Source of the DNA: Oscillospiraceae bacterium
GTDB lineage: Bacteria > Bacillota > Clostridia > Oscillospirales > Oscillospiraceae
NCBI GenBank assembly: GCA_015068365.1
Contig: SVKR01000035.1
Location: forward strand, 1 to 49,734
DNA length: 49,734 nt
Reading direction: 5' to 3'
Of the stretch, positions 6,024 to 20,571 are shown in pieces; the stretch's first letter is position 1; every line of letters begins with the position of its first letter. The notes below the pieces were generated by a model. That model was not told the origin of the DNA. It worked only from the letters and a program-made list of their open reading frames with translations, and searched no databases. A program made the position numbers and the translations under genes.

Positions 6024-7222
6024 GCGACGTGCTTTCAAGGGAGGAGACCGCGCTGCTGGCCCTGGCGCGCGCGGCGCTGACCGGCGCTGCGGCAGAGGGT
6101 GTCAGCGCGGACACGGACTGGGAGGGCCTTTGCGCCCTGGCGGAAAAGCACGCGGTGCTGCCGCTGCTGTGCCCGGTGCTGCAGGGCCTTGCGCCGGAGC
6201 GGCTGTGGAAGCCGGCGGCGGAGAAGTGCACCGCGCAGTTTTACCGCTTGGCGGTGATGAGCCGCTATTATACCGCGCTTCTGGCGGAGGCCGGCGTGAA
6301 GACCGTGGTGCTCAAGGGCGCGGGCGCGGCGCGGTATTACCCCGTGCCGGAGCACCGCAAAAGCGGCGACATCGACCTGCTGCTGGCCGATCCCGGGCAG
6401 ATGGAGCAGGCCTGCCGTGTCCTGGAATCCGACGGCGCCGCGGCGCTTTCGGAGCAGCACGCCAACCACCACCGCGCGTTCCGCAGCCCGGAGGGCATCG
6501 AGCTGGAGGTGCACAGCACGCTGACGGAGGATTTTGACGACGGGCGCGTCAACGCCCTGTGCGCTTCGCTGCGCGATGAACTCGGCCGCAGCGCCGAGGT
6601 GCGCGAGGTGCTGCCGGGCCTGGCGCTGCCCGTGCCGGACGCGGCGGGGCAGGCGGTCTCGCTGCTGCTGCACATGCTGCAGCACTTTCTGCGGGCCGGC
6701 TTCGGGCTGAAGCTGCTGTGCGACTGGGCGGCGTTCTGGAACGCGCTGCCCCCGGGGACGGACATGGCGCGCTATGAGCGCTTCGTGGACGAGGCCGGGG
6801 TGCGCGGCTTTGCCGACATGGCGGGCGGCGTGTGCGTGCGGTATCTGGGCCTGCGCCCGGAGCAATTGACGATCACGCGCAGCTTTGAAGCGGACACTGT
6901 TTGCACTTTCCTGCGCGAGGTCTTTGACGCGGAGGAGTTCGGGCGCAGCAGCAGCCGGCGCATGGTGATGGTGCGCCGGGGCCTTGCCGGCTACGTCCGG
7001 GAATTTCACCATCAGATGCACCTGAATTTTCCCCGCGCGGGACGATGCCCGCTGCTCTGGCCGGCGCTCTGGTGCGCCACGCTCTGGCGCTTTCTGCGCA
7101 ATAACCGCACCGTGCGCGGCACCACGACGGGGGCCGTTCTGAAGGAGGCGCGGCGGCGCAGCCGGCTCATGGAGCCGCTGGCACTGTTTCAGAATCAGAA
7201 AGATGTCGGTGAATCCCGGTAA
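6020..7222 (+). CDS. Uncharacterised nucleotidyltransferase (NTP_transf_5 type)
   Basis: VVLKGAGAARYYPVPEHRKSGDIDLLL is the typical minimal nucleotidyltransferase motif of this family. The ATG overlaps the Stealth stop (ATGA). Confidence 0.7.
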   Translation: MSDVLSREETALLALARAALTGAAAEGVSADTDWEGLCALAEKHAVLPLLCPVLQGLAPERLWKPAAEKCTAQFYRLAVMSRYYTALLAEAGVKTVVLKGAGAARYYPVPEHRKSGDIDLLLADPGQMEQACRVLESDGAAALSEQHANHHRAFRSPEGIELEVHSTLTEDFDDGRVNALCASLRDELGRSAEVREVLPGLALPVPDAAGQAVSLLLHMLQHFLRAGFGLKLLCDWAAFWNALPPGTDMARYERFVDEAGVRGFADMAGGVCVRYLGLRPEQLTITRSFEADTVCTFLREVFDAEEFGRSSSRRMVMVRRGLAGYVREFHHQMHLNFPRAGRCPLLWPALWCATLWRFLRNNRTVRGTTTGAVLKEARRRSRLMEPLALFQNQKDVGESR

Positions 7223-7242
7223 ATCTTGTACATTATTTCCAA

Positions 7243-7271
7243 TTGTAATGTTGACCTTTCCATGCTATACT
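7243..7271 (+). promoter_or_regulatory. Sigma-A-like promoter for the 146-aa ORF
   Basis: TTGTAA, 17 nt, TATACT, with an extended -10 TGc, inside an AT-rich 89-nt intergenic island. Confidence 0.5.
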
Positions 7272-7311
7272 CTAAATGTGAAATTATTTCCTGTTTGAAA
7301 GGGGTAATCAT

Positions 7312-7752
7312 ATGTATTCCAAACCCATCGTTCTGACCCACAGCGACATGGCCGAGGGCGTTTATGCCGCCAGCGGCGCGGCCACCTGCTGGTCCGGCAG
7401 CTGTCCCAGCGTGCAGAACTGGAACGGCTCTCACAACGTTTTTGAAGTCCGCATTTCCCACAGTGCCGACGTGCAGCACATCTCCAACGCCGTGACCATC
7501 ACGATCCAGTTCAACAGCCCGCTGACGGATGTCTACGCCGAGAACGGCTGGAGCTGCACTGCCAACGGCAGCACCGTCACCGTGACCAGACCCAGCCATG
7601 CCAACGCCTACAACTCCGGCGACAACGTGACTTTCAAGATCTGGGCCAAGGCCGCGGATGAGACCACCACCAAGGCCCTGTATGCCAACATCACCGGCTT
7701 CAGCTGCGATTACAGCGCCAACGTCCAGGGCAACGGCGGCGACGGCAACTAA
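7312..7752 (+). CDS. Hypothetical 146-aa protein; candidate substrate or cargo of the flanking modification/export cassette
   Basis: AAAGGGG RBS 7 nt before the ATG, own promoter and terminator, and C-ending codon bias like the host genes. No hydrophobic signal peptide. N-terminus MYSKPIVLTHSDMAEGVYAASGAA, then C-x4-C, then a Thr/Ser/Asn-rich beta-type body. Confidence 0.75.
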   Translation: MYSKPIVLTHSDMAEGVYAASGAATCWSGSCPSVQNWNGSHNVFEVRISHSADVQHISNAVTITIQFNSPLTDVYAENGWSCTANGSTVTVTRPSHANAYNSGDNVTFKIWAKAADETTTKALYANITGFSCDYSANVQGNGGDGN

Positions 7753-7782
7753 GCCGCAGCGCAAACCCAACTCAGAAGCAAA

Positions 7783-7819
7783 AAGCACCGCAGACACACT
7801 GCGGTGCTTTTCCGTTTTT
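7783..7819. terminator. Shared (convergent) intrinsic terminator
   Basis: AAGCACCGCAG / CTGCGGTGCTT stem followed by TTCCGTTTTT, with an A-run on the other side. It sits between convergent genes. Confidence 0.7.
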
Positions 7820-7824
7820 ACCGT

Positions 7825-9600
7825 TCAAAACTCCCGGATGAGCTGCTCCACCTCGTCGCCGGAGAGCAGCGTGAGGCGCTTGTCGCGGATCTGATAGACC
7901 CGGGTGCACATGGTCAGCACCGTGGGGCGGTGGGTGGTGACGATGCACACGCGGGGGTACTCGTCGGCCATGATGCTGCGCAGCACCCGCCGCTCCGTGG
8001 CCACGTCCAGGGCGGAGGAGGCCTCGTCCAGCAGCAGGATCGGGCTGCGGCGCAGCAGCGCGCGCGCGATGGACAGGCGCTGGGCCTGCCCCTCGGAAAA
8101 GCCGCCGCCCCGCTCCTTGACGGCGCTGTCGATGCCGTCGGGCAGCTTGTCCACGAAATCCAGCGCGCAGGCCAGACGCAGCGCATCGCGGATCTCATCG
8201 TCCGTGGCGTCGGGGCAGACGGTGCGCATATTCTCGGCGATGGTGCCGGAGAACATGGTGTTGCCCTGGGGCACATAGGCGAAGGCGCTGCGCGCCGCCG
8301 GGGTCAGCGGCAGGGTTTCGCCGTCCGCGCCGCGCAGTGTGACGGTGCCGGCGTGAGGCTGCACCAGCGCCAGCAGCAGGCGCAGCATGGTGGTCTTGCC
8401 CTCGCCGCTGGGGCCGACCAGGCCGATGATCTCATGCGGCCGGGCCGTGAAGGAGGCGCCGGAGAAGACCTGGGTGCCGGTCTTGTAGCTGTAATCCACC
8501 GCGTCCACCTCCAGGCTGATGCCCTCGGTGCGGTGGGCTTCGATGAACTGCTCGGCGCGTTCGGTGCCGCTGTAATCCTCCTGGGGCATCTCCAGAATGT
8601 CCATGAGCCGCCCGGCGGAGGTGGTGAGGGAGATGGCGCTGGGCACGATGCCGGCCAGGGAGTTGACCGCGCCGGTCAGCGTGCCGCTGAGGGCCAGGAA
8701 CATGGTCATGGAGCCGTAGGTGATGGCGCCGCTCCAGACCCGGTAGATGCCCCAGCCGTAGGAGCTGTAGCTGACCAGCAGCCCCACAAAGCCCAGGATC
8801 ACGCTGGTGGCCATGGACATGCGGGAGAACTCCAGGCGCATGTTGATGTAGTCGTCCTGCAGCTGCCGCAGCCGCGCCACATAGAGCTTCACCAGTCCGA
8901 AGGCCTTGATGGTCTGGATGTTGGAAAAGGTCTCCTGGTTGAAGCCGGACATTCTCGCTGCCATCTGGGCGCTGCGCTGGTTGTTGCTCTGCATCCGGTT
9001 CAGCAGCCGCCGGGACATGACGAGGCTGAAGGGGATGCCCAGCAGGGCGAAGATGGCAAAGCTGGGGTCATGGTACAGCACCACGTACAGCGCGCTGAAA
9101 AAGCGGAACATATTGATGACCAGATTTGGCACAAAGCCCAGCACGCCGTTGGAGATGGCCGAGGCGTCGCTGCTCCAGCGGGTCAGCAGGTCGCCGGTGT
9201 GGTAGGCCGTGAGGCTCTCCCAGTCGGTGACGAGGATCTTGGAGAAGATGTCCTGCTTGATCTCCGCGTCCACCCGCATGCTGATGCGGGCGGAGACATA
9301 GCCGGTGATCTGGCTGACGACGATGTTGCCGACGGCCAGACCGATCATGATGGAAAAGGTGCGGATCAGCTCGCCGGTGCGGTGGCCGGTGATGATGTCC
9401 ACCAGATCGCGGCTGACCATGCTGGTGAGCAGCCCCACCAGCGAACCGGCCATGCCCAAAAGCGTGTAGAAGATCATGGCGCGGTGATAGCGCTTGGCAT
9501 AATTGTAGATCCACATGGCCTGGCGCCAGATCTCCCGGATGCGGCCGGACTTGACGCGCTCCCGGTAAAAGCGCAGGCGGTTTTTCAGACTGTCAGCCAT
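7825..9600 (-). CDS. ABC exporter, fused permease/ATPase (MsbA/type I exporter fold), no C39 peptidase domain
   Basis: Six TM segments. Walker A GPSGEGKTT, signature FSEGQAQRLSIARA, Walker B ILLLDEASSALD. Confidence 0.9.
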   Translation of the reverse strand: MADSLKNRLRFYRERVKSGRIREIWRQAMWIYNYAKRYHRAMIFYTLLGMAGSLVGLLTSMVSRDLVDIITGHRTGELIRTFSIMIGLAVGNIVVSQITGYVSARISMRVDAEIKQDIFSKILVTDWESLTAYHTGDLLTRWSSDASAISNGVLGFVPNLVINMFRFFSALYVVLYHDPSFAIFALLGIPFSLVMSRRLLNRMQSNNQRSAQMAARMSGFNQETFSNIQTIKAFGLVKLYVARLRQLQDDYINMRLEFSRMSMATSVILGFVGLLVSYSSYGWGIYRVWSGAITYGSMTMFLALSGTLTGAVNSLAGIVPSAISLTTSAGRLMDILEMPQEDYSGTERAEQFIEAHRTEGISLEVDAVDYSYKTGTQVFSGASFTARPHEIIGLVGPSGEGKTTMLRLLLALVQPHAGTVTLRGADGETLPLTPAARSAFAYVPQGNTMFSGTIAENMRTVCPDATDDEIRDALRLACALDFVDKLPDGIDSAVKERGGGFSEGQAQRLSIARALLRRSPILLLDEASSALDVATERRVLRSIMADEYPRVCIVTTHRPTVLTMCTRVYQIRDKRLTLLSGDEVEQLIREF

Positions 9601-10762
9601 GTCCGCCCTCCTCCAAAAACGCGTCGATGGCCCGCTTCAGCGTCTCCGCGGCCTGGGGCTGCGGGGTGCATTCCAGCTCCCACATGCCGCAGTGCCGGGC
9701 CAGAAGCGCGGCAAAGGTGAGGTTCTCCTGCAAAAGCGTTTCGGTCCACACCGGGGACACCAGCCGGTTGGCGCAGCGCAGTGGTCTCTCCTCCGGCGGC
9801 AGGGGGCGGGCGGCGTTTTCGCCCGCGCGGCGCAGGAAGGCAATGCCGCCCAGAGGATGGCGCTCCCGCCGGGCGATGCCGCTGGTGCCGCACCAGGGCA
9901 GGGGGTGGAACACGGCGCCGCCGCCCGTGACGGAGAGCAGCGCCAGGTCGCCGTTGAGCACCGGGACGCCGTACCCGGCCTGCCACAGGCGGGCGTGGGT
10001 GCTTTTGCCCGTCCCGGCGGAGGCGGAGAAGAGCCAGACGCGCTCCCGATAGAGGACGGAGGCGGCGTGCATGGCGAAAAAACCGCACTTCTGCGCGCGA
10101 AAAAGCGCCACATGGCGCAGCGCGTGAAAGAGGTCGTCCCTGGCGCGGGCCTCGTCATAGCCGGGGTGCAGGGTGATGACGGCCCGGTCCCCCGCCGGCG
10201 TCATTGCCGCGCCGGCGACGTCCGGCATGGTGGGAAAGCGCAGCAGCAGGCAGCTCTCGCCGGCGTAGACCTCCAGCTCACGGTTTGCCAGCAGGCAGCG
10301 CAGCCCCGCCGGGCCCGGCGCTGCGCCGGAGACGACGGCCACGCTCTGCCGGGGGCGCTGCGCGGCGTCCACAGGCTCGAGGTAGGGCGCAAAGTCGCCG
10401 TGCAGCAGCGCCTCGGCGCAGCAAAGCCGCACGCGCAGCGGCCCCACGGCCAGGTCGGCGCAAGGGCTGGCCAGGTCGAGCGGGTCGGGAAACGCCCCCT
10501 CCAGCACGCCGAGGGCGCGCATCTGCCCCACAAAGCCGGCGGCGTCGCCCGCGGCGCGGGCGCGCTCCGCCTCCGGCAGGGCGGCCAGAAAGGCCTCCTC
10601 CGCCGCGTCGGCGTCCGGGCAGGCCTCCAGAAGCTTCCACAGCGCCGCGCCGCCGCCTTCCAGGCGCAGGGCGGGGCGCTGCTCGGCCACAGCCTGGCCA
10701 AAGGGCAGGAGCCATGCGCCGTCCGGCAGGTTTTGCAGCGTATAAAACGGATTCTTTTTCAT
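9593..10762 (-). CDS. Fusion protein: N-terminal PqqD-like (RRE) domain + HPr-kinase-related kinase domain
   Basis: I chose the ATG at 10762 (MKKNPFYTLQNL), preceded by GAGGG. The N-terminal ~95 aa fit the PqqD pattern (..LPDGAWLLPF..ALRLEGGGAALWKLLE..). The C-terminal part has the P-loop SASAGTGKST and LNGDLALL, as in HprK-like kinases. The stop overlaps the ABC start by 8 nt. Confidence 0.65.
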   Translation of the reverse strand: MKKNPFYTLQNLPDGAWLLPFGQAVAEQRPALRLEGGGAALWKLLEACPDADAAEEAFLAALPEAERARAAGDAAGFVGQMRALGVLEGAFPDPLDLASPCADLAVGPLRVRLCCAEALLHGDFAPYLEPVDAAQRPRQSVAVVSGAAPGPAGLRCLLANRELEVYAGESCLLLRFPTMPDVAGAAMTPAGDRAVITLHPGYDEARARDDLFHALRHVALFRAQKCGFFAMHAASVLYRERVWLFSASAGTGKSTHARLWQAGYGVPVLNGDLALLSVTGGGAVFHPLPWCGTSGIARRERHPLGGIAFLRRAGENAARPLPPEERPLRCANRLVSPVWTETLLQENLTFAALLARHCGMWELECTPQPQAAETLKRAIDAFLEEGGHG

Positions 10763-10791
10763 AAGGACCCTCATTTGTGCGCAAATAGGAC

Positions 10792-10820
10792 TTGCCAAGC
10801 CTGCGCACTTGTCATAAAAT
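10792..10820 (+). promoter_or_regulatory. Sigma-A-like promoter for the peptidase gene
   Basis: TTGCCA, 17 nt, TAAAAT. This makes the track's TTG start at 10792 implausible. Confidence 0.55.
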
Positions 10821-10857
10821 ACTATTTATAACGCATGGAAAGCGGGAGGCGCCGCCC

Positions 10858-11295
10858 TTGGAGCGAAGCGGGGGAAAAGTGGACATCGAAGCCTGCCTCG
10901 CCGCAGGGGAGACGGTGCAGTTTCCCATCCGGGGCTGGAGCATGTATCCCTTCCTCGCCGACGGGCGGGACCAGGCGGTGGTCGCCCCGGCGGAGGGGAC
11001 GGCGCTGCGCCGCGGGGACGTGGCGCTTTACCGGCGGGACGGCGGCATACTGGTGCTGCACCGCGTCTGGCGGCACGACGCCGCGGGGCTGTGGTTCGTG
11101 GGCGACAACCAGACCGCGGTGGAAGGCCCGCTGCGGCCCGACCAGGTCCGCGGCAAGCTGACCGCCCTGTGCCGCAAGGGGCGGATGATCTCCGCCGACG
11201 ATGCGCGCTACCGGATCCTCAGCCGGCTGTGGCTTCTCGCGCGGCCGCTTCGGCCCGCGATCTCCCACGCGGTCCATGCGCTGCGAAATCTGTAA
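10858..11295 (+). CDS. S24/S26-family serine peptidase, SipW/ER-type (Ser-His) signature, no N-terminal TM anchor
   Basis: TTG at 10858 lies 8 nt after GGGAGG (GTG 10879 is an alternative). Motifs GWSMYPFL (Ser box), VLHRVW (His where P-type signal peptidases and LexA carry Lys) and GDNQTAVEGP. Confidence 0.65.
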   Translation: MERSGGKVDIEACLAAGETVQFPIRGWSMYPFLADGRDQAVVAPAEGTALRRGDVALYRRDGGILVLHRVWRHDAAGLWFVGDNQTAVEGPLRPDQVRGKLTALCRKGRMISADDARYRILSRLWLLARPLRPAISHAVHALRNL

Positions 11296-11373
11296 AATTC
11301 AGTATAGCATTCGGGAAAAACCTTGGCAAGGTTTGCCGGGGCGATTTTTCCGCGATCCAAGGAGGAAATGAAA

Positions 11374-12585
11374 ATGATACGCTGTTCTGACCGGCTGCAA
11401 TACGTCCATTCCGACATCCGCGGCCCGCTGTATCTGGAGGCCCTGCGCATGGAATCGGAGGGCACCAGCGTTCTGAAGCTGAACACCGGCAACCCCGGGC
11501 GCTTCGGCTTTGCCCTGCCCAACTCCGTGCGCCAGGCGCTGGCCCTGCACATCGACGAGGCCGTGCCCTACTGCGATGTGCGCGGCATGCCGGATGCGCG
11601 CAACGTCATCTGTACCTATCACATCGGCCGCGGGCTGCAGGGCATCATGCCCAGCGACGTCTTCATCTGCAACGGCGTCAGCGAGGCGGCCAGCATGATC
11701 CTGGACGCGCTGGTCGGCCCCGGCGACGAGATTCTGCTGCCCTCGCCGAACTACAGCCTCTGGAGCAACAACAGCTACCTCTCCGGCGGCCAGCCGGTCT
11801 TCTACCGCTGCGACCCGGACAACAACTGGAACCCCGACATCGAGGACATCCGCTCCAAGGTCAACGAGCGCACCAAGGCCATCCTGGTCATCAACCCCAA
11901 CAACCCCACCGGCGCCGTGTACAGCCACGAGACGCTGATGGCCATTGCCGACATCGCGCGGCAGAACCACCTTGTACTGCTGGCGGACGAGATCTATGAC
12001 CGCCTGGTCATGGACGGGCTGCGCCATGAGTCCCTGGGCGCCATCGCCCCGGACGTGCCCTGCGTCACCTTCAACGGCCTGAGCAAAAGCCACATCATCT
12101 GCGGCTTCCGCTGCGGCTGGATGGTGTTCAGCGGCCCGAAGGGCGAGCTGGACGACGTCAAGGCCGGCGTGATGAAGCTGGCCAGTATGCGCCTTTGCGG
12201 CAATGCGCTGACCCAGCTGGTGATCCCCGCCGCCCTGGTGGACAGCGAGTCCACCCGGGAGATGGTGCTGCCCGGCGGGCGGCTTTACGAGCAGCGCGAG
12301 GCCACCTGCGCGGGCCTGGACCGCATCGAGGGCGTTTCCTATGTGAAGTCCCGCGCGGCCTTCTACCTCTTCCCGAAGCTGGAGAAGGAGAAGTTCGACT
12401 TTACCTCCGACGAGGACTTTGCCATGAAGTTCCTGCATGAGCAGCACGTTCTGGTCATCCCCGGCAGCGGCTTTGACTGGCATGAGGACATCCGCTTCCG
12501 CATCGTCATGCTGCCGGAGGCCGACGTGCTGACCAAGGCCATGGACGACCTGAAGTACTTCCTCAGCCGCCATCGGGTGAAATAA
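11374..12585 (+). CDS. PLP-dependent aminotransferase class I/II (alanine aminotransferase AlaA-like)
   Basis: DIRGPLYLEALRMESEG..VLKLNTGNPG.FGF, NPNNPTGAVY and the Lys motif SKSHIICGFRCGW. AAGGAGG RBS. Confidence 0.85.
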   Translation: MIRCSDRLQYVHSDIRGPLYLEALRMESEGTSVLKLNTGNPGRFGFALPNSVRQALALHIDEAVPYCDVRGMPDARNVICTYHIGRGLQGIMPSDVFICNGVSEAASMILDALVGPGDEILLPSPNYSLWSNNSYLSGGQPVFYRCDPDNNWNPDIEDIRSKVNERTKAILVINPNNPTGAVYSHETLMAIADIARQNHLVLLADEIYDRLVMDGLRHESLGAIAPDVPCVTFNGLSKSHIICGFRCGWMVFSGPKGELDDVKAGVMKLASMRLCGNALTQLVIPAALVDSESTREMVLPGGRLYEQREATCAGLDRIEGVSYVKSRAAFYLFPKLEKEKFDFTSDEDFAMKFLHEQHVLVIPGSGFDWHEDIRFRIVMLPEADVLTKAMDDLKYFLSRHRVK

Positions 12586-12651
12586 GAACTGCGCCCTTCC
12601 CCCGCCCGACCCACGGCGGGGGAACACGCTATGTAAAGGGAGGAAACGCCG

Positions 12652-13896
12652 ATGCAGCGGACAAAACCGGGCGGAAGATTCTGGGCGGCGATGCTCATTT
12701 TCGGCCTCATGGGCCAGGTGGCCTGGGTCGTCGAGAATATGTATTTCAACGTCTTTATCTATAAAATGTTCCATGCCGGGCCGGGGGACATCTCCGCCAT
12801 GGTCATGGCAAGCGCCGTGGTCGCCGCGCTGACCACCATCGTCATGGGCGCGGTGTCGGACAGGGTGGGGCAGCGCAAGGCCTTTATGAGCGCGGGCTAT
12901 CTGATCTGGGGCGTCAGCATCGTGAGCTTTGCCTGGATCAAAAGCATCTGGCTCACGATTGTCATGGACTGCGTGATGACCTTCTTCGGCTCAACCGCCA
13001 ACGACGCGGCCTACAACGCCTGGCTGACCGACCGGGGCGACGAGACCAACCGCGGGCGGATCGAGGGGCTGAACTCCATGATGCCCCTCATCTCCATCCT
13101 GGTGGTCTTCGGCGGCTTCATGGGCTTTGATCTGGACAGCGCCTCGTCCTGGAAAACCATCTATTGCATCATCGGCGCGGCCACCGCCGTCATCGGCGTG
13201 CTGGGCTTTTTCCTCATCGAGGACGCGCCCTCCCTGCGCCCGGACAGGGCGGGCTTTTTCGAGACGCTGCGCTACAGCTTCCGGCCCTCCACCTGCCGGG
13301 CGAACCTGCGGCTGTACGGCGTGCTGGCGGCCTTTGCCGTGTTCGGCATCTCCATCCAGATCTTCATGCCCTATCTGCTGATCTACTATGAAAAGACCCT
13401 GGGGCTGACGAACTATGTGCTCATCCTGGCCCCGGCCATCCTGGCCGCCGCCGCCGTCACCGCGCTGTATGGCCGCGTGATCGACGCGCGGGGCTTCCGC
13501 TTCGCCGTCTGGCCGGCGCTGGGGATGCTGGCGCTGGGCTATGTCCTTCTGATCCTCACGCGCTCCGCCGCGCCGGTCTTCATCGGCTCGCTTCTGATGA
13601 TGAGCGGCTATCTCACGGGCATGAGCGTGTTCGGCGCGGAGATCCGCGCGCTGATCCCGGAAAACCGCTCCGGCCAGTTCCAGGGCGTGCGCATCATCGG
13701 CCAGGTCTTTATCCCCGGACTGATCGGCCCGGCCATCGGCGCGCTGGTGCTGAAAAACGCGGAGACCATTGTGAACAGTGACGGCACCGAGAGCTTTCTG
13801 CCCAATGCCAACATCTTCGTCGCGGCGCTGGCCGTCGCGGCGGTGCTGGCGCTGGTGCTGATCCCGGTGCTGCGAAGGAGAGGGAAGCGCGCGTGA
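12652..13896 (+). CDS. MFS transporter (glycoside/cation symporter-like)
   Basis: About 12 TM segments and a GGGAGG RBS. The stop overlaps the next start (GTGA). Confidence 0.75.
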   Translation: MQRTKPGGRFWAAMLIFGLMGQVAWVVENMYFNVFIYKMFHAGPGDISAMVMASAVVAALTTIVMGAVSDRVGQRKAFMSAGYLIWGVSIVSFAWIKSIWLTIVMDCVMTFFGSTANDAAYNAWLTDRGDETNRGRIEGLNSMMPLISILVVFGGFMGFDLDSASSWKTIYCIIGAATAVIGVLGFFLIEDAPSLRPDRAGFFETLRYSFRPSTCRANLRLYGVLAAFAVFGISIQIFMPYLLIYYEKTLGLTNYVLILAPAILAAAAVTALYGRVIDARGFRFAVWPALGMLALGYVLLILTRSAAPVFIGSLLMMSGYLTGMSVFGAEIRALIPENRSGQFQGVRIIGQVFIPGLIGPAIGALVLKNAETIVNSDGTESFLPNANIFVAALAVAAVLALVLIPVLRRRGKRA

Positions 13897-15152
13897 AAGA
13901 GAAGACCAAAGACATTGTCCGGCAGGCCGCGGCCTACGCCTTCGCCGCCGTGCGCTGGCTGCCCGCGGCGGTGCTGATCGGGCTGGTGTGCGGCGCCGTG
14001 GGCGCGGCCTTTCACCACGGCATCCGGCTGGCGAGCGCGTATCGCGCTGGGCACGACTGGGTGATCTTTCTGCTGCCCGTGGGCGCGGCGGTCATCACGC
14101 TGCTGTACCGGGCGCTGCGCCTGGCGCCGGACGTGGGCACCAACCTGGTGCTGGAGGCGGTGCGCTCGGAAAAGCAGGTGCCGCCGGCGCTGGCCCCGGC
14201 CATGTTCATCGCCACGGTGCTGACCCAGTTCGTGGGCGGCAGCGCCGGACGGGAGGGCGCCGCGCTGCAGATCGGCGGCAGCCTGGCCGGCGGCATCGCC
14301 CGGCTTCTGCGCATCCGGGAGGAAAACCGCCATCTGCTGATCCTGTGCGGCATGGCGGCGGTGTTCTCCGCGCTGTTCGGCACCCCCGTGGGGGCGGCCG
14401 TTTTCGTGCTGGAGGTGGCCTCCGTCGGCCGCTTCCTCTACAGCGCTCTGGTGCCCACCCTCTGCGCCTCGCTGACGGCGGCGGAGGTGGCGCGGCTTTT
14501 GCAGGGCGAGGTGATGCGCATGGCCCTGCCGCACGCCCCCATCACGGCGGTACTGACGCTGCAGACCGCGGCGCTGGCCATCGCCTGCGCGATTTTGAGC
14601 ATCGTGTTCTGCGTGGCGGTGCACCGGACAGGGCACCTGGCGGAGCGTTTCCTGAAAAACCCCTATCTCCGCGCCGTCGTGCTGGGCGCAGCGCTTTTGG
14701 GGCTGACGCTGCTCTCCGGCGGGCGCAGCTTCAACGGCGCGGGCATGGACTTTGTGGAGCGGGCCGTGGCCGGCGAAGCCGTGCCATGGTACGCCTTCGT
14801 GCTGAAGCTGGTCTTCACCGCCGTGACGCTGGCGGCGGGCTACAAGGGCGGCGAGATCGTCCCCACCTTCTTCGTCGGGGCGGCCTTCGGCGCCGTGGCC
14901 GGGCCGCTGGTGGGCCTGCCGGCGTCCTACGCCGCCGCCATCGGCATGGTGGGCATGTTCTGCGGCGTGGTGAACTGCCCCTTTGCCGCGCTGTTCCTGG
15001 CCATCGAGATCTTCGGCGGGGAGTATCTGCTGCCCTTCGCCGTCACCTGCGCGCTATGCTATGTCTTTTCCGGCTATTTCGGGCTGTACAGCAGCCAGCA
15101 GATCCTGCGCTCAAAAGTGGGCAGCGAGCTCATCGACCGCAATGCCATCTGA
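13893..15152 (+). CDS. ClC-family voltage-gated chloride channel / H+-Cl- antiporter
   Basis: GGSAGREGAALQIG and GYKGGEIVPTFFVGAAFG selectivity-filter motifs. Confidence 0.85.
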   Translation: MKEKTKDIVRQAAAYAFAAVRWLPAAVLIGLVCGAVGAAFHHGIRLASAYRAGHDWVIFLLPVGAAVITLLYRALRLAPDVGTNLVLEAVRSEKQVPPALAPAMFIATVLTQFVGGSAGREGAALQIGGSLAGGIARLLRIREENRHLLILCGMAAVFSALFGTPVGAAVFVLEVASVGRFLYSALVPTLCASLTAAEVARLLQGEVMRMALPHAPITAVLTLQTAALAIACAILSIVFCVAVHRTGHLAERFLKNPYLRAVVLGAALLGLTLLSGGRSFNGAGMDFVERAVAGEAVPWYAFVLKLVFTAVTLAAGYKGGEIVPTFFVGAAFGAVAGPLVGLPASYAAAIGMVGMFCGVVNCPFAALFLAIEIFGGEYLLPFAVTCALCYVFSGYFGLYSSQQILRSKVGSELIDRNAI

Positions 15153-15165
15153 AAGGAGACACACC

Positions 15166-17592
15166 ATGGAGCTTTTCGCATACGAAAAAGAGCATTTATC
15201 CGCCCTGCGTCCCCGCCTGGCAGAATGCGCGCTCTTCCTGCGGCGCAGCGGGGACTTCCCGCTGTCTGCGCCGGGGGAGATCGCCCTTTACGGCGCCGGG
15301 GTGCGCCACACCCTGCTGGGCGGCACCGGCTCCGGCGAGGTGAACGTCCGCTGCGCCGCGAGCGTGGAGGAGGCCTTCCGCGCCGCGGGCTTCACCGTCA
15401 CCACCGCCGACTGGCTGGACGGCTATGACCGCATCCTGGCCGCGGCAAAAAAGCGCTATTTTGCCCGGGTGCGGCGCGAAGCGCTGACGGGCGGCATGGC
15501 AGCCGTCTTCGGCGCCATGGGCCGGGTGATGCCGGAGCCGGACTACGAGCTGCCCCTCGGCTTCGGGGAGACGGCGGTCTACGTCCTCAGCCGCATCTCC
15601 GGCGAGGGCAGCGACCGCGCCGCCGTGAAGGGCGACATCTACCTGTCCGACACGGAACGGCGCGATATTCTGGCGCTGCGGCGCGCTTACCGGCGCTTTC
15701 TGCTGGTGCTGAACGTGGGCGGGCCGGTGGATCTGAGCGGGCTGGAGGCCGTGACGGACATTCTGCTGCTGGGCCAGCTCGGCACCGAGACCGCCGGGGC
15801 GCTGGCGGACATCGTGCTGGGCCGGGCCAATCCCTCCGGAAAGCTGGCCGCCACCTGGTGCGCCTGGGCCGACCGCTGCACGCTGGGCGATTTCGGCGAA
15901 GAAGAGGAGACGCGCTACCGCGAGGGCATCTACGTCGGCTACCGCTGGTTCGACACGGTGGGCAAGGCGCCCATGTTCCCCTTCGGCTTCGGCCTTTCCT
16001 ACTGCGATTTTGCCGTGGAAGCGCCCGAAATGAGCGTGACGGGGCGGCGGGTGCGCGTGCGCGCAGGGCTGCGCAATCTGGGCGCGCTGCCCGGACGGGA
16101 GACGCTGCAGGTCTATGTCTCCGTCCCCGCCGGGGCGCTGGACCAGCCCTGGCAGACCCTGGCCGCCTTCCGGAAAAGCGGCGGGATCGCCCCCGGCGAA
16201 GCGGGGGACGCGGAATGTGAATTTGACCTTGCCGACCTGGCATGCTATGACCCGGCAAAGCAGGCCTGGGTGCTGGAGCGCGGGGACTACGGCGTGCGGG
16301 CCGGGATCAGCTCCCGCGACACGGCGCTCATCGGCGTCGTCACCCTGGCGGAGACCGTGGTGCTGCGCCGCTGCGAACCCCTGTTCGGCGACCCCGGCTT
16401 TGCCGACTGGCAGCCGGAAGCGCGCCCGGCGGAGTACCCGGCGCACCTGCCGCGCTTCGCCGTCGCATCGGCGCAGTTCCCGCCCGCGGAGACGGCGGAG
16501 AACCCCGAGCGCTTCCCGGTGGAGCCGGAGTGCGCCGCGGCCTCGGACGAGGCATTGGCGCGCGTCTGCGTCGGCATGCACAGCGACGCCGGCGGCCTGG
16601 ACAGCATCATCGGCAACGCCGGCTTCACCGTGGCCGGCGCGGCGGGGGAGACCGTGCCCGCCCCGTGCGCAGTGCCCGTGCCCGGCCTTGCCATGGCCGA
16701 CGGCCCCGCGGGGCTGCGCCTGAGCCGGAAGTATTACCGGGACGCCGCCGGCGCCCACGCCATCAGCGACACCATCCCCGCCAGCATGGCGAAGATGCTG
16801 CCCGCGCCCGTGCGCTGGCTCCTGGCGCTGAAGGCCGGGCGGCCGGGGGAGAACGCTGTGCACTGTCAGTACTGCACGGCCATCCCCATCGGCACGGCCA
16901 TCGCCCAGTCCTGGGACAGGGACTTCGCGCGGCTCTGCGGCGACATCGTGGGGCACGAGATGGAGCGCTTCGGCGTGCGCATCTGGCTGGCCCCGGCCAT
17001 GAACATCCAGCGCGACATGCGCTGCGGGCGGAACTTTGAGTACTATTCCGAAGACCCGCTTCTGTGCGGCGCCATGGCCGCCGCCGTCACCGCCGGGGTG
17101 CAGTCCCATCCCGGGTGCGCGGCCACGGTGAAGCACTTTGCCGCCAACAACCAGGAGCGCAACCGCACGAACAACAACTCCCGCGTGTCCGAGCGGGCGC
17201 TGCGGGAGATCTATCTGCGCGCGTTCGGCATCTGCATCCGCGACGCGCAGCCAAAGTGCCTGATGACCAGCTATAACCTCATCAACGGCACCCACACCTC
17301 CTCGCACTATGGCCTGGTGACGCGCGCGCTGCGGGGCGAATTCGGCTTCCGCGGCGTGGTGATGAGCGACTGGATCATGCCGCCGCTCTATACCAGCAAG
17401 ACCTATCCCGGCCCCACGGCGGCCGAGAACGTGGCCGCCGGCGGCGATCTGTTCATGCCCGGCCGGGCGGAGGACGTGCGGAGCATCCTGGACGCGCTGG
17501 CCGCCGGAGGGCTCTCCCGCACCGCGCTGGAGGAGAGCGCCAGCCGCGTGCTGCGCCTGAGCCGGGAGCTGCACGCGCCCGCCGGGCGGTGA
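15166..17592 (+). CDS. Glycoside hydrolase family 3 (beta-glucosidase-like) with permuted domain order
   Basis: ATG at 15166 after AAAGGAG. GH3 C-terminal-type motifs come first (LGGTGSGEV, NVGGPVDLS, PSGKLAATW, YREGIYVGYRWFD). These are followed by an Fn3-like segment, then the catalytic barrel (KHFAANNQE, GFRGVVMSDW) at the C-terminus. No signal peptide. Confidence 0.85.
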   Translation: MELFAYEKEHLSALRPRLAECALFLRRSGDFPLSAPGEIALYGAGVRHTLLGGTGSGEVNVRCAASVEEAFRAAGFTVTTADWLDGYDRILAAAKKRYFARVRREALTGGMAAVFGAMGRVMPEPDYELPLGFGETAVYVLSRISGEGSDRAAVKGDIYLSDTERRDILALRRAYRRFLLVLNVGGPVDLSGLEAVTDILLLGQLGTETAGALADIVLGRANPSGKLAATWCAWADRCTLGDFGEEEETRYREGIYVGYRWFDTVGKAPMFPFGFGLSYCDFAVEAPEMSVTGRRVRVRAGLRNLGALPGRETLQVYVSVPAGALDQPWQTLAAFRKSGGIAPGEAGDAECEFDLADLACYDPAKQAWVLERGDYGVRAGISSRDTALIGVVTLAETVVLRRCEPLFGDPGFADWQPEARPAEYPAHLPRFAVASAQFPPAETAENPERFPVEPECAAASDEALARVCVGMHSDAGGLDSIIGNAGFTVAGAAGETVPAPCAVPVPGLAMADGPAGLRLSRKYYRDAAGAHAISDTIPASMAKMLPAPVRWLLALKAGRPGENAVHCQYCTAIPIGTAIAQSWDRDFARLCGDIVGHEMERFGVRIWLAPAMNIQRDMRCGRNFEYYSEDPLLCGAMAAAVTAGVQSHPGCAATVKHFAANNQERNRTNNNSRVSERALREIYLRAFGICIRDAQPKCLMTSYNLINGTHTSSHYGLVTRALRGEFGFRGVVMSDWIMPPLYTSKTYPGPTAAENVAAGGDLFMPGRAEDVRSILDALAAGGLSRTALEESASRVLRLSRELHAPAGR

Positions 17593-17661
17593 TGCAGGAA
17601 ACGCATCCGGTAAAAACTGCGGCGTAAAAATTATGCATACCGATGAATCTGATTCTTACGG

Positions 17662-17690
17662 TTGCAAGCGGCAGAGAATAATGTTAAACT
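17662..17690 (+). promoter_or_regulatory. Sigma-A-like promoter upstream of the ferredoxin/flavoprotein pair
   Basis: TTGCAA, 17 nt, TAAACT, with extended -10 TGt. It leaves a ~110-nt GC-rich leader. Confidence 0.5.
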
Positions 17691-17809
17691 GGTAACATCC
17701 CCAAAATATGGCTTACCCCAGGAGGGCGGCGCGCCGCTGACCTATGTCCCCGCCGCGCCGTGCCGACAGGATATTTCCCCCGCGAGAATACTGAAGGAGG
17801 TAGATACCC

Positions 17810-18055
17810 TTGATCAACACAAAGCACCGCATTGACTTTGACCCCGAAAAATGCGTGGGCTGCCAAATCTGCTACAAGTCCTGTTTCGTGGATGTCATCC
17901 GCTGGGACGCAGAGGCGAAAAAGCCCGTCTTCAAGTATGTGGAGGACTGCGAACACTGCTTCCTGTGCATGGCACTGTGCAAAAAAGAGGCCATCACCGT
18001 TGTCCCCAACTATGCCAGCGAGCACATGCTCCAGAACTTTGAGAAGTACAGGTGA
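17810..18055 (+). CDS. 2x[4Fe-4S] ferredoxin
   Basis: CVGCQICYKSC and CEHCFLCMALC cluster motifs. TTG start after GAAGGAGG. Confidence 0.8.
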   Translation: MINTKHRIDFDPEKCVGCQICYKSCFVDVIRWDAEAKKPVFKYVEDCEHCFLCMALCKKEAITVVPNYASEHMLQNFEKYR

Positions 18056-18066
18056 GGTGAGACGCT

Positions 18067-20526
18067 ATGACGAACTATAATCAGGCATCCTGTGACATTC
18101 TGATCCTCGGCGGCGGCATCGGCGGACTTTCCTGCGCCGTCTCCATCAAAGAGCGCAACCCCGACGCCGACGTGCTGGTGGTGGAAAAGAACTTTGCCGG
18201 TTACGCCGGCAAGGCCAACCGCGGCGGCGGCGTGCTGCAGTACTTCCCGGACCGCGTGGATCCCTGGGGCTTTGCCGTGTTCCACGCCAAGAACATCGGC
18301 GCGGACTTCACCGATCAGCCCCTCATGGCCCGCTATGTCTCCCAGAACAGCGCCATGATGGACAAGCTGGACGAGTGGGGCGTGAACATCCCCCGCAACC
18401 CGGACGGCAGCCTGAACGTCATGCCCACCGGCCCGATGACCGCCATGATCTGCGTGGACCTGGACATCACCGTCAAGGTGCGCCGCACGGCGGAGAAGAA
18501 GGGCGTCCGCTTCATGGACAAGACCGTCATGGCCGACCTGCTGGGTGATGAGAAAGGCGTCAAGGGCGCCGTGGTCTTCTCCGTGCTGGACGGCACCGTG
18601 ACCGCCATCAGCGCCAAGAAGGTCGTCCTCGCCACCGGCAGCCAGGACTATCGCGTGGGCTCCATGTGGGGCTCCGCCCGCGGCGACGGCATTCTGGCCG
18701 CCTACAAGCTGGGCGCGGAGATGCGCAACACCGAGTTCGGCAACTTCACCCAGATCGCCCGCTACCGCAGCCACAACGAGGTCGTGTTCGGCGAGAACTA
18801 TATGTACAACGCCAAGGGCGAGTTCATCACCGCCAACTTCCGCATCGGGCCGCGGGAGACGGACATCTCCTCCCGCACCATCCGCGAGTGGTACCTCCAG
18901 ATGATGGCCGGCAACGGCCCGATCCATCTGGATTACGGCGATGAGCGCGGCGACGGCGAGGACTCCATGGAGCGTATGTGGGCCCGCCCCTACGGCAAGA
19001 AGTTCCGCCAGCTCAATGACGAAACCGCCAAGAGCGTTGACACCGACCTGGAGGTCGCGCCGCTGTTCATCGGCGAGCAGAGCCCCATCAAGGTCGACCA
19101 CGATATGAAGACCACCGTCCCCGGCCTGTACGCCATCGGCGACTGCTCTTACTGCGGCTCCGGCCTGGCCGGCGCCGTGCCGGCACCTCCGGGCCGCAAC
19201 CGCGGCAGCGGCATCCTGAACGCCGTGTTCTCCGCCATTGAGGCCGCCAACGACCTGGGCAAGGCTGACCTGAGCGGCGCGCTGCCCGAGCTGAGCGAGC
19301 AGCAGATCGACGCTGCCGCCAAGCGCATCACCGGCTATATGGACCGCGCCGAGGGCGTGAAGCCCGAGGCCGTGGTGGAGCTGGTGCAGAAGGCCATGTG
19401 CCCGGTGGAGCAGTCCGTCTACATGAAGGCCGACCGCATGGAAAAGGCCATGGGCTTCGTCAAGGAGGCCAAGGCCCTGCTGCCCAGGATGGCCGCCAGG
19501 GACCTGCACGAGGCCATGAAGTGCCTGGAGGCCGAGGCCATGGTGCTGTCCGCCGAGATGCACTATCGCGCCAGCGAGATGCGCAAGGAGTCCCGCGGCT
19601 GGTTCCTGCGGGAGGATTATCCCGAGCAGGACAACGTCAACTGGCACAAGTACATCATCGTGAAGCGCGGTGCTGACGGCGAGATGACCCTGCACACCGA
19701 GCCCGTGGACACCACCGGCTGGATCTACACGCCGGAGCATCTGGTGGCCATCAGTGACGAGGTGAAGAACGGGCCGCTCTATAAGTATTATCAGATGCCC
19801 ATGACCCCGCCGGACCCGGCCCGCTATGCCGTGATGGCCGCCCCGGTGGACCCGGCGAAGATGATCACCCCCTTTGAGATGAACCGCCTGTTTGACCCGG
19901 GCTATCTGGACTGCGAGTGCGGCTATGCCCAGCTGCCCGACGGCGGCGCCATGCTGGCCAACCTGACCGACATGCCCAACGTCACGCCGGAGATGTTCGA
20001 CTTCTGGTTTGCCTGGCACGTCCTGGCCGACGGCCGCTATACCATCTGGAACCGCGAGGACCATTACAGCGCCGTCAGCGATTCCATCGAGAAGGGCAAC
20101 AACAAGGCCCTGTCCATGAAGGAGCGCTATTGGGACACCACCCACGCCGTGTTCGAGGACTGCGGCCTTGGGCCGGAGCGCATCGTCATCAACTTCCGCA
20201 ACCCCGCCGACATCGGCTTTGACCCGGAGAAGCTGAAGGACTTCAAGGGCACCATCGTCTGCTCCGGCAACGAGGAGAGCCCCTGCATCATGTGCCACTT
20301 CCTCCGCCCGAAGGCCGACGGCAAGGGCTATGAGCTGCGCTCCCGCTTCTGGTTCGGCTACCACATCGTCAACGGCAAGCCCGAGTGCCACCCGATGCTG
20401 CACGCCGGCCCGTTCCCGCTGATGCCCGTGATGGCCCTGCTGGCCCACAACATCAAGGAGTTCACCAACCTCGCCGACAAGCTGCCGCAGATCTATGCGG
20501 AGTTCCACGAGGACTTCGAGAAGTAA
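18067..20526 (+). CDS. Fusion: FAD-dependent oxidoreductase (fumarate reductase/AprA-like flavoprotein) + C-terminal DAPG/phloretin hydrolase (PhlG)-like domain
   Basis: N-terminal ILILGGGIGGLSCA dinucleotide fold and AIGDCS motif. From about nt 19790, NRLFDPGYLDCECGYAQLPDGGAMLANLTDMPNVTPEMFDFWFAWH and LLAHNIKEF (H-x3-E) match my recollection of PhlG-family C-C hydrolases. Confidence 0.75.
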   Translation: MTNYNQASCDILILGGGIGGLSCAVSIKERNPDADVLVVEKNFAGYAGKANRGGGVLQYFPDRVDPWGFAVFHAKNIGADFTDQPLMARYVSQNSAMMDKLDEWGVNIPRNPDGSLNVMPTGPMTAMICVDLDITVKVRRTAEKKGVRFMDKTVMADLLGDEKGVKGAVVFSVLDGTVTAISAKKVVLATGSQDYRVGSMWGSARGDGILAAYKLGAEMRNTEFGNFTQIARYRSHNEVVFGENYMYNAKGEFITANFRIGPRETDISSRTIREWYLQMMAGNGPIHLDYGDERGDGEDSMERMWARPYGKKFRQLNDETAKSVDTDLEVAPLFIGEQSPIKVDHDMKTTVPGLYAIGDCSYCGSGLAGAVPAPPGRNRGSGILNAVFSAIEAANDLGKADLSGALPELSEQQIDAAAKRITGYMDRAEGVKPEAVVELVQKAMCPVEQSVYMKADRMEKAMGFVKEAKALLPRMAARDLHEAMKCLEAEAMVLSAEMHYRASEMRKESRGWFLREDYPEQDNVNWHKYIIVKRGADGEMTLHTEPVDTTGWIYTPEHLVAISDEVKNGPLYKYYQMPMTPPDPARYAVMAAPVDPAKMITPFEMNRLFDPGYLDCECGYAQLPDGGAMLANLTDMPNVTPEMFDFWFAWHVLADGRYTIWNREDHYSAVSDSIEKGNNKALSMKERYWDTTHAVFEDCGLGPERIVINFRNPADIGFDPEKLKDFKGTIVCSGNEESPCIMCHFLRPKADGKGYELRSRFWFGYHIVNGKPECHPMLHAGPFPLMPVMALLAHNIKEFTNLADKLPQIYAEFHEDFEK

Positions 20527-20537
20527 GAGTTCCCACG

Positions 20538-20569
20538 AAAAACACCCCGGTTCGTGCCGGGGTGTTTTT
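20538..20569 (+). terminator. Intrinsic terminator
   Basis: AAAAACACCCCGG / CCGGGGTGTTTTT hairpin with a T-run. Confidence 0.8.
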
Positions 20570-20571
20570 CC

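Follow-up and report, generated by a model that had tools for sequence, protein, structure and literature searches.

A 49,734-nucleotide stretch of contig SVKR01000035.1 (assembly GCA_015068365.1, Oscillospiraceae bacterium), referred to below as the window, contains a gene for a small ferredoxin followed by a gene for a flavoprotein fused to a C-C hydrolase domain. We propose, with a probability of about one half, that the products of these two genes form one predicted enzyme, which would carry out a redox step on an acylphloroglucinol-type polyphenol, cleave a C-C bond, and release phloroglucinol. Most likely, the module frees phloroglucinol from plant polyphenols in the absence of oxygen. 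That phloroglucinol is what it delivers is very probable, because the module is co-operonic with a phloroglucinol pathway in related loci, because this pathway is also present in the genome to which the window belongs, and because the hydrolase domain is of the PhlG/Phy family. The features of the region are listed in Table 1.

Table 1. Positions of the ferredoxin and fusion genes, their parts, and the adjoining features in the window.
Feature	Position	Strand	Remarks
MFS, ClC, and GH3 genes, possible glycoside import and deglycosylation	12652..17592	+	Pfam MFS_1, Voltage_CLC, GH3 and Fn3-like
Leader between the GH3 and ferredoxin genes, probably with its own promoter and 5' untranslated region	17593..17809	+	Starts of RNA-library contigs
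Ferredoxin of 81 aa with two [4Fe-4S] clusters, AprB-like electron transfer subunit	17810..18055	+	TTG start behind GAAGGAGG; two CxxCxxCxxxC motifs; several Fer4 family matches
Fusion open reading frame	18067..20526	+	Intact, 819 aa, ATG start at 18067
FAD module, residues 1 to ~563	18067..19755	+	AprA/FrdA-superfamily flavoprotein, predicted noncovalent FAD; Pfam FAD_binding_2 and Succ_DH_flav_C
Zn C-C hydrolase domain of the PhlG/phloretin hydrolase family, residues ~564 to 819 and stop codon	19756..20526	+	PF18089; matches to 5xe5 and 3hwp
Intrinsic terminator closing the ferredoxin-fusion unit	20537..20570	+	15-bp stem (8 G-C pairs) and T-tract, 10 nt past the stop codon

The first-pass annotation of this DNA had described a flavin adenine dinucleotide (FAD) oxidoreductase that runs without a stop into a domain resembling PhlG and phloretin hydrolase. 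The reading frame is indeed open over its whole length, and a Pfam scan gave three matches in the expected order, FAD_binding_2 at residues 10 to 221 (4.7e-21), Succ_DH_flav_C at residues 451 to 556 (6.5e-14), and DAPG_hydrolase (PF18089) at residues 604 to 811. Both domain models named in the annotation, FAD_binding_2 and DAPG_hydrolase, were thus matched, the latter with an E value of 7e-61 and 206 bits against a cutoff of 22.7, over profile positions 6 to 223 of 223. The hydrolase part begins at about residue 564 to 575 (about nt 19756 to 19790), which agrees with the boundary near nt 19790 given earlier, and the motifs quoted at that time (RLFDPGYLDCECGYAQLPDGG, TDMPNVTPEMFDFWFAWH, and LLAHNIKEF) are all present in the translation. 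A frameshift or stop dividing two genes had been considered as well. The results showed that the architecture of an FAD module followed by DAPG_hydrolase occurs in at least 75 protein clusters (clusters at 90% identity), which are 55 to 99% identical to the window fusion. The domain junction (about nt 19750 to 19800) was spanned without an indel by contigs from public sequencing runs of independent studies, namely, the RNA-library contigs X1 (18420 to 20215) and X3 (19280 to 20237) and the DNA run X7 (19587 to 19963). Therefore, the fusion is not the product of a frameshift or of misassembly. An AlphaFold model of the full 819-aa protein had a mean predicted local distance difference test (pLDDT) score of 86.5 and a predicted template modeling (TM) score of 0.83. 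Some fused homologues are longer, with 850 to 915 aa, and carry at least ~67 extra residues after residue 295 of the FAD module (L070, L071, L075, L058, and G245:C4:2065-4710); in the model, this insertion site is a surface loop with low pLDDT at residues 293 to 298.

The hydrolase domain was then compared with enzymes of known structure. By sequence, it matched the phloretin hydrolase of Mycobacterium abscessus (5xe5, 1.1e-32) and PhlG (3hwp, 2e-24). The Zn ligands of PhlG are taken to be His129, Glu160, His270, and Glu274. With an offset of 8 residues for the tag, these are H137, E168, H278, and E282 of chain 3hwp_A, and they align to H666, E697, H794, and E798 of the fusion, which are therefore putative Zn ligands. 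All four positions, and likewise H651 and H744, were invariant in 53 fused homologues. The full-length PF18089 match, the sequence matches to 5xe5 and 3hwp, and the retention of these four positions bear out the assignment of the C-terminal domain to the PhlG family. With the PhlG equivalog model of NCBIfam (NF047887), the domain scored 84.3 bits, far under the cutoff of 600; we therefore regard it as a member of the PF18089 family and not as PhlG proper. The fusion has PF18089 and the His/Glu/His/Glu positions in common with Phy (Eubacterium ramulus; M. abscessus 5xe5) and PhlG (Pseudomonas fluorescens 3hwp), and its product would be phloroglucinol, as for Phy. However, Phy and PhlG are stand-alone proteins of ~280 to 300 aa, whereas the hydrolase described here is either the C terminus of a flavoprotein or always lies beside one.

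For the FAD module, the closest solved structures found with Foldseek were the alpha subunit of 3'-phosphoadenosine-5'-phosphosulfate (PAPS) reductase (8a8o, TM score of 0.81 on the target), followed by AprA and Escherichia coli FrdA, at ~21% sequence identity. The TM score against E. coli FrdA was 0.76 to 0.80, and the FAD-binding, capping, and C-terminal helical folds are shared. At the residue level, His44 of E. coli FrdA, to which FAD is covalently attached through its 8-alpha position, is replaced by the invariant G48, and at the substrate-binding positions His232 and His355, the fusion has T228, which is Ala in most homologues, and I335, respectively. The dinucleotide-binding glycines and the GD motif of the FAD site are invariant among the homologues of the module. 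A loop from G369 to F388 (GAVPAPPGRNRGSGILNAVF) is also strictly invariant; it has no counterpart in FrdA and is the lowest-confidence part of the model. All FrdA/SdhA models of NCBIfam scored far under their cutoffs on the fusion, and the scores with aprA TIGR02061 (54 versus 642) and PRK06854 (107 versus 557) were similarly far from the cutoff. Because the key residues of FrdA are absent, and because the scores and the gene context are unlike those of adenosine-5'-phosphosulfate (APS) reductase, the FAD module is neither a fumarate reductase nor an APS reductase. Thus, of the earlier description as fumarate reductase/AprA-like, the fold stood, according to both Foldseek and Pfam, and the implied function did not, as the catalytic and flavinylation residues of FrdA are missing. 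Judged from the alignments and the model, the module is a protein of the AprA/FrdA fold with predicted noncovalent FAD. The Pfam scan found no Oxidored_FMN domain in the fusion, which is not a member of the Fcr/EnoR family, though it may work like Fcr. Neighbours in the ESM Atlas gave generic names only, and the flavoprotein of the module is labelled in databases only as FAD-dependent oxidoreductase.

The annotation had also paired the fusion with the ferredoxin, whose stop codon lies exactly 11 nt before the ATG of the fusion. This pairing is widely conserved. Of 75 loci, 59 have the ferredoxin gene next to that of the flavoprotein, and several of the remainder are truncated at a contig end. 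In every one of 31 loci compared, the ferredoxin was 81 aa long, with all 8 Cys residues invariant, a mean column identity of 79%, and the conserved signature CYKxCFVDVIRWD. A search of the ferredoxin against PDB by sequence gave generic di-cluster matches only, with AprB at an E value of 0.003 among many. We then predicted the complex of the ferredoxin with the fusion. The interface score (ipSAE) was 0.85 in three runs and 0.00 for the best of three controls; for comparison, the 0.85 mark was attained by 58 of 80 solved complexes and by 2 of 110 mismatched pairs. Contact agreement between runs was at least 93%, and the pLDDT of the partner was at least 91. The confident predicted contacts were all on the FAD module (residues 41 to 52, 196 to 203, 231 to 236, 309 to 334, 434 to 448, and 481 to 485), and none was on the hydrolase domain. 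Since complexes of the AprAB and PAPS reductase alpha/beta type have already been solved, this result is to be read as likeness to them and not as proof of binding. The ferredoxin is thus predicted to be a dedicated subunit, not a free carrier, that docks on the FAD module as AprB does on AprA.

The comparison with AprAB and with the PAPS reductase alpha/beta of Methanothermococcus thermolithotrophicus (1jnr, 2fja, and 8a8o), whose TM scores to the FAD module were 0.69 to 0.81, reveals the same subunit logic, an FAD-containing alpha subunit with noncovalent FAD and a small beta subunit with two [4Fe-4S] clusters. The module differs from AprAB in its low sequence identity (~21%), in scores far under the aprA cutoffs, and in a ferredoxin of only 81 aa. 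Its locus has no sulfate activation or Qmo genes, and the recurrent context is phloroglucinol catabolism.

To describe the distribution of the module, gene arrangement was surveyed in 78 loci from named genome records, the hosts being uncultured herbivore-gut and biogas Clostridia. The fusion turned out to be widespread, with fused genes in ~38 of the 78 loci; three of these hold a tandem pair of fused copies, both accompanied by a ferredoxin of their own. In ~17 loci, the order was ferredoxin, flavoprotein, and a separate hydrolase gene (254 to 259 aa) 10 to 50 nt downstream, and in ~18 loci, the hydrolase gene preceded the ferredoxin and flavoprotein genes. The unfused homologues usually have a divergent LysR regulator, and their parts stay adjacent. 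Each of the three gene orders thus keeps the flavoprotein and the hydrolase together, by fusion or adjacency, in support of the functional coupling proposed in the annotation, and the fused form is further, fusion-based ("Rosetta stone") evidence for joint action of the parts. Among 301 sampled genomes of the family, 62 had some match and ~20 had a full-length fusion; several genomes carry both the module and a stand-alone hydrolase.

A tree of the hydrolase part only was further obtained by a quick maximum-likelihood search, with supports from the Shimodaira-Hasegawa-like approximate likelihood ratio test (SH-aLRT) and without any characterised Phy sequence. In this tree, one clade (SH-aLRT of 95) comprised 14 stand-alone hydrolases from the same family of bacteria, and the hydrolases encoded ahead of the ferredoxin formed a separate clade (SH-aLRT of 93). 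The fused hydrolases and those encoded downstream of the flavoprotein formed a third clade (SH-aLRT of 100), in which the two states were interleaved; the well-supported branches within this clade force at least three fusion or fission events. The window fusion and its paralogue in the same genome (see below) belong to two different old sublineages of the tree, which probably take different substrates. The tandem pairs of ferredoxin and fusion genes (L027 to L029 at 7001-12422, L034, and L039) have one copy from each of these lineages. The window-type lineage is often followed by an MFS transporter, and the second lineage by a TRAP transporter or by cupin and PGR genes. In the tandem pairs, the second lineage is directly followed by a complete TRAP transporter (DctQ, DctM, and DctP) and a D-2-hydroxyacid dehydrogenase, a context that hints at a carboxylate as substrate or product.

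The genes surrounding the module were then counted in 75 loci, within 7 kb, with gene calls scored by codon usage against antisense open reading frames in high-GC DNA. Besides the ferredoxin, the most frequent neighbour was a LysR regulator (28 of the 75 loci). It was followed by a short-chain dehydrogenase (SDR) of the PGR type in 18 loci, a 3-hydroxyacyl-CoA-dehydrogenase-like protein (3HCDH) of the TfD type and a "cyclase"-family protein of the DPGC type in 15 each, and a BKACE enzyme of the TAL type in 12. A cupin was found in 11 loci, an MFS transporter in 10, CoA-transferase subunits A and B in 9 and 6, and a TRAP transporter (DctM) in 7. No sat, qmo, or dsr gene was among the recurrent neighbours. 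The phloroglucinol cluster of Clostridium scatologenes consists of PGR, DPGC, TfD, and TAL (PMC10470551), and the SDR, cyclase, 3HCDH-like, and BKACE neighbours are of exactly these four families, which also occur in the genome of the window. Many loci are co-oriented throughout, for example, L027 and L083; the order in the latter is LysR, hydrolase, ferredoxin, flavoprotein, cupin, SDR, 3HCDH, cyclase, BKACE, CoA-transferase A, and CoA-transferase B. This co-operonic arrangement with the phloroglucinol pathway sustains the acylphloroglucinol theme of the annotation. Unlike the C. scatologenes cluster, the clusters found here often add a cupin. A DAPG_hydrolase gene beside the cluster has been reported only in some bacteria (Mycobacterium), in a paper that describes no ferredoxin-flavoprotein partner (PMC10470551). 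A small Cupin_2 protein (~116 to 135 aa) regularly precedes the PGR gene (L027:899-1306, L083:9784-10137, L010:14023-14373, and 8 other loci), and no mention of a cupin was found in the paper on the C. scatologenes cluster (PMC10470551). In five loci (L072, L073, L077, L080, and L095), an FMN protein of ~325 aa resembling FabK and nitronate monooxygenase is directly beside the module and may add another ene-reductase to the pathway. Two neighbour families (c19 and c16) were tried as known flavonoid enzymes and rejected, as their PDB matches were FabK-like and dienoyl-CoA-reductase/NCR-like instead.

The genome of the window is a 2.25-Mb metagenome-assembled genome, 86% complete, of a rumen or gut Clostridia bacterium. 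PF18089 matched exactly twice in it, each time within a fusion, and no other PhlG/Phy-type hydrolase was found there. On contig C178 (L010:11150-15186), the second fusion (11473-13968) is 60% identical to the window fusion, has its own ferredoxin, and is located behind a divergent LysR gene. It is followed by a cupin gene and then by an SDR gene whose product is 83% identical to 5g4l/5g4k, named "Phloroglucinol reductase from Clostridium sp." in its Foldseek entry title (the code 5G4K was not found in the literature). Three further FAD enzymes are encoded upstream on the same contig, two of them VprA/flavocytochrome c-like. Contig C161 has a cluster of MerR, cyclase, 3HCDH, and transporter genes, with DPGC- and TfD-type assignments at the family level. 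On contig C115 (L016:1447-6721), a molybdopterin enzyme (706 aa or more, truncated at the contig end) and a Fer4_11/CarboxypepD_reg subunit are followed by a thiolase and a BKACE enzyme, the latter TAL type at the family level. With a PGR 83% identical to 5g4l and with DPGC-, TfD-, and TAL-type genes, the organism is equipped to ferment phloroglucinol. The molybdopterin pair has the shape of a pyrogallol-phloroglucinol transhydroxylase, which suggests that the organism also funnels gallate or pyrogallol into phloroglucinol. Four EnoR-type enzymes (old yellow enzyme [OYE] and Pyr_redox_2 domains, frames of 668 to 770 aa) are encoded on contigs C2, C17, C123, and C163. So many oxygen-sensitive ene-reductases are unusual for 2.25 Mb, and they fit a polyphenol-reducing lifestyle. 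The idea that the module replaces a missing Fcr was rejected because of these four enzymes.

The reaction we propose would run as follows. The substrate would be a plant acylphloroglucinol-type polyphenol, a flavonoid-derived ketone bearing a 2,4,6-trihydroxyphenyl ring. Electrons would pass from a low-potential pool through the two [4Fe-4S] clusters of the ferredoxin to the noncovalent FAD, and the FAD module would use them to reduce, by two electrons, a C=C bond in conjugation with the aryl ketone, e.g., of a chalcone or of a flavanone or isoflavanone whose ring has opened. The fused Zn hydrolase domain could then cleave the aryl-acyl bond in a retro-Claisen reaction, yielding phloroglucinol and an arylpropionic-type acid and making the sequence irreversible. 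Phloroglucinol would subsequently be fermented by the PGR-DPGC-TfD-TAL route. The canonical carbon chemistry of the FrdA superfamily consists in reducing a C=C bond adjacent to a carbonyl. This, and the parallel with the known order of Fcr followed by Phy, favours enone reduction, and an enone reduction that precedes C-C hydrolysis is our best guess, made by analogy. In the known route, reduction by Fcr is followed by the action of Phy (PMC11572103, PMC13515148). This route, present in E. ramulus and Flavonifractor plautii, resembles the proposed one in its logic, as the reductase makes a dihydrochalcone-type ketone from which the hydrolase frees phloroglucinol, and in its ecological setting, anaerobic polyphenol breakdown. 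However, Fcr is an NADH-dependent OYE-type enzyme with FMN, FAD, and a [4Fe-4S] cluster, whereas the flavoprotein described here has the AprA/FrdA fold and would be fed by a separate subunit with two [4Fe-4S] clusters. Furthermore, Fcr and Phy are unfused, whereas here a reductase-type module and a hydrolase are in one chain.

Several observations weigh against an enone reduction followed by hydrolysis. The FAD module lacks the substrate-binding residues of FrdA, and its nearest structural relatives, the PAPS and APS reductases, catalyse reactions of sulfur compounds rather than ene-reduction. NADH suffices for Fcr, which leaves the need for a ferredoxin-type donor without explanation. An extra chalcone reductase may be redundant, given the four EnoR-type enzymes in the genome and the one beside the module in some related loci. 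The TRAP transporter that follows one paralogue lineage suggests an anionic substrate. Finally, the score of the predicted complex may partly derive from solved complexes of the AprAB type.

In one alternative, hydrolysis comes first. The Zn domain would split an unsaturated acylphloroglucinol, for example, a chalcone, into phloroglucinol and a 2-enoate, such as p-coumarate, and the FAD module would reduce the enoate as a ferredoxin-fed electron sink. Soluble enzymes of the FrdA family typically reduce 2-enoates bearing a carboxylate, the invariant loop from G369 to F388 contains invariant Arg residues, and both the carboxylate-type TRAP transporters with the 2-hydroxyacid dehydrogenase beside one lineage and the VprA/flavocytochrome c-like, enoate-type reductases adjoining the paralogue would fit such a reaction. 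However, the carboxylate-binding His232 and His355 of FrdA are missing from the module, and an enoate reductase acting on its own would not need the link to the hydrolase, by fusion or by neighbouring genes, that all three gene orders retain. In addition, chalcones cyclise fast, and a conjugated carbonyl would be a poorer substrate for retro-Claisen cleavage. We consider this order of events unlikely.

It is also conceivable, and in our judgement unlikely, that the flavoprotein works in the oxidative direction. It would dehydrogenate, for example, taxifolin dihydrochalcone (an alpha-hydroxy-dihydrochalcone) to a 1,2-diketone or auronol, or create an aryl ketone, with electrons leaving through the ferredoxin; the hydrolase would then yield phloroglucinol and an arylpyruvate or arylacetate precursor, which would fill a branch of flavonol breakdown that has no assigned enzyme. 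The chemistry of FrdA, Sdh, L-aspartate oxidase, and AprA is reversible, the enzyme converting hydroxyaurone to phloroglucinol and hydroxyphenylacetate is blank in the table of a 2024 review, and taxifolin dihydrochalcone builds up in C. butyricum despite its Phy. The separation of the module-linked hydrolases from the stand-alone ones in the tree, together with their coexistence in some genomes, would also suit this direction, as would the recurrence of a D-2-hydroxyacid dehydrogenase nearby. The thermodynamics argue the other way, since a low-potential ferredoxin would be an unfavourable acceptor for the oxidation of a C-H or C-OH bond, and no 2-oxoacid oxidoreductase is among the conserved neighbours. 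Moreover, G094, a complete genome of 4.3 Mb from the same bacterial family, has a stand-alone hydrolase only; if its owner is a classical flavonol degrader, this branch needs no module.

Reduction of the ring itself is highly improbable. The FAD module would, driven by ferredoxin, reduce the keto tautomer of an acylphloroglucinol or of freed phloroglucinol, so that C-C cleavage would be easier and dihydrophloroglucinol would be formed directly. The reduction of phloroglucinol is formally an ene-reduction of its keto tautomer (PMC10470551), and physical coupling of the two domains would channel the product. However, such an activity would be redundant, as these operons already encode an NADPH-type PGR dedicated to this reduction, and such a PGR is also encoded two genes downstream of the paralogue. 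Lastly, the chance that an artefact or an accident without function has joined two domains of unrelated roles is practically negligible in view of the at least 75 fused clusters, the contigs crossing the junction, the adjacency of the parts in both split orders, and the invariance of catalytic positions in both domains.

At the locus itself, RNA-library contigs of three runs begin at positions 17712, 17732, and 17747 and end between 20485 and 20533, while a DNA contig (17188 to 18235) extends without a break out of the GH3 gene. These contig ends hint weakly at a separate transcript of the ferredoxin and fusion genes; a stringent promoter scan found nothing in the leader upstream of the ferredoxin gene. 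The depth of RNA contigs was higher over the ferredoxin-fusion unit than over its flanks, but contig depth cannot rank genes and was not counted as evidence of expression level. The exact locus was found in 20 runs from 15 studies of the gut or faeces of cattle, sheep, and other animals, 10 of the runs being metatranscriptomic libraries. The gene after the terminator encodes a GGDEF protein and has its own promoter-like sites. The GH3 gene on the other side (14983 to 17592) has its domains permuted, in the order GH3_C, Fn3-like, and GH3_N, and is preceded by overlapping MFS and ClC genes. GH3 as a partner of the module was rejected, as no GH3 family was present among the 30 recurrent neighbour families in 75 related loci.

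The annotation knew of no characterised example of the fusion, and none was found in the literature searched, nor was any description of a ferredoxin-flavoprotein-hydrolase module. New here are the fused form with its repeated origin, the two conserved paralogue lineages, the predicted AprAB-like docking of the ferredoxin, and the occurrence of the locus in metatranscriptome assemblies from animal guts. Reviews still list steps leading to phloroglucinol without an assigned enzyme. Tentatively, and with the odds against it, the module may catalyse such an enzyme-less step of anaerobic polyphenol breakdown, the candidates being the conversion to phloroglucinol and an aryl acid of flavonol-derived auronols or alpha-hydroxy-dihydrochalcones, or of genistein-type isoflavanones. 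It would then represent an AprA-like flavoenzyme recruited from sulfur to carbon chemistry and driven by low-potential ferredoxin, and the two paralogue lineages would correspond to two substrate classes of a new family.

Phloroglucinol is the hub for the anaerobic mineralisation of flavonoids and tannins, the most abundant plant polyphenols, and the module is common in rumen and hindgut bacteria of the Oscillospiraceae type and is tied into the phloroglucinol operon. Its fused form amounts to an expression construct of two polypeptides (81 aa and 819 aa). Naming the reaction would add a ferredoxin-dependent route to polyphenol breakdown, improve the annotation of herbivore and human gut metagenomes, and reveal a chemistry new to the AprAB scaffold.

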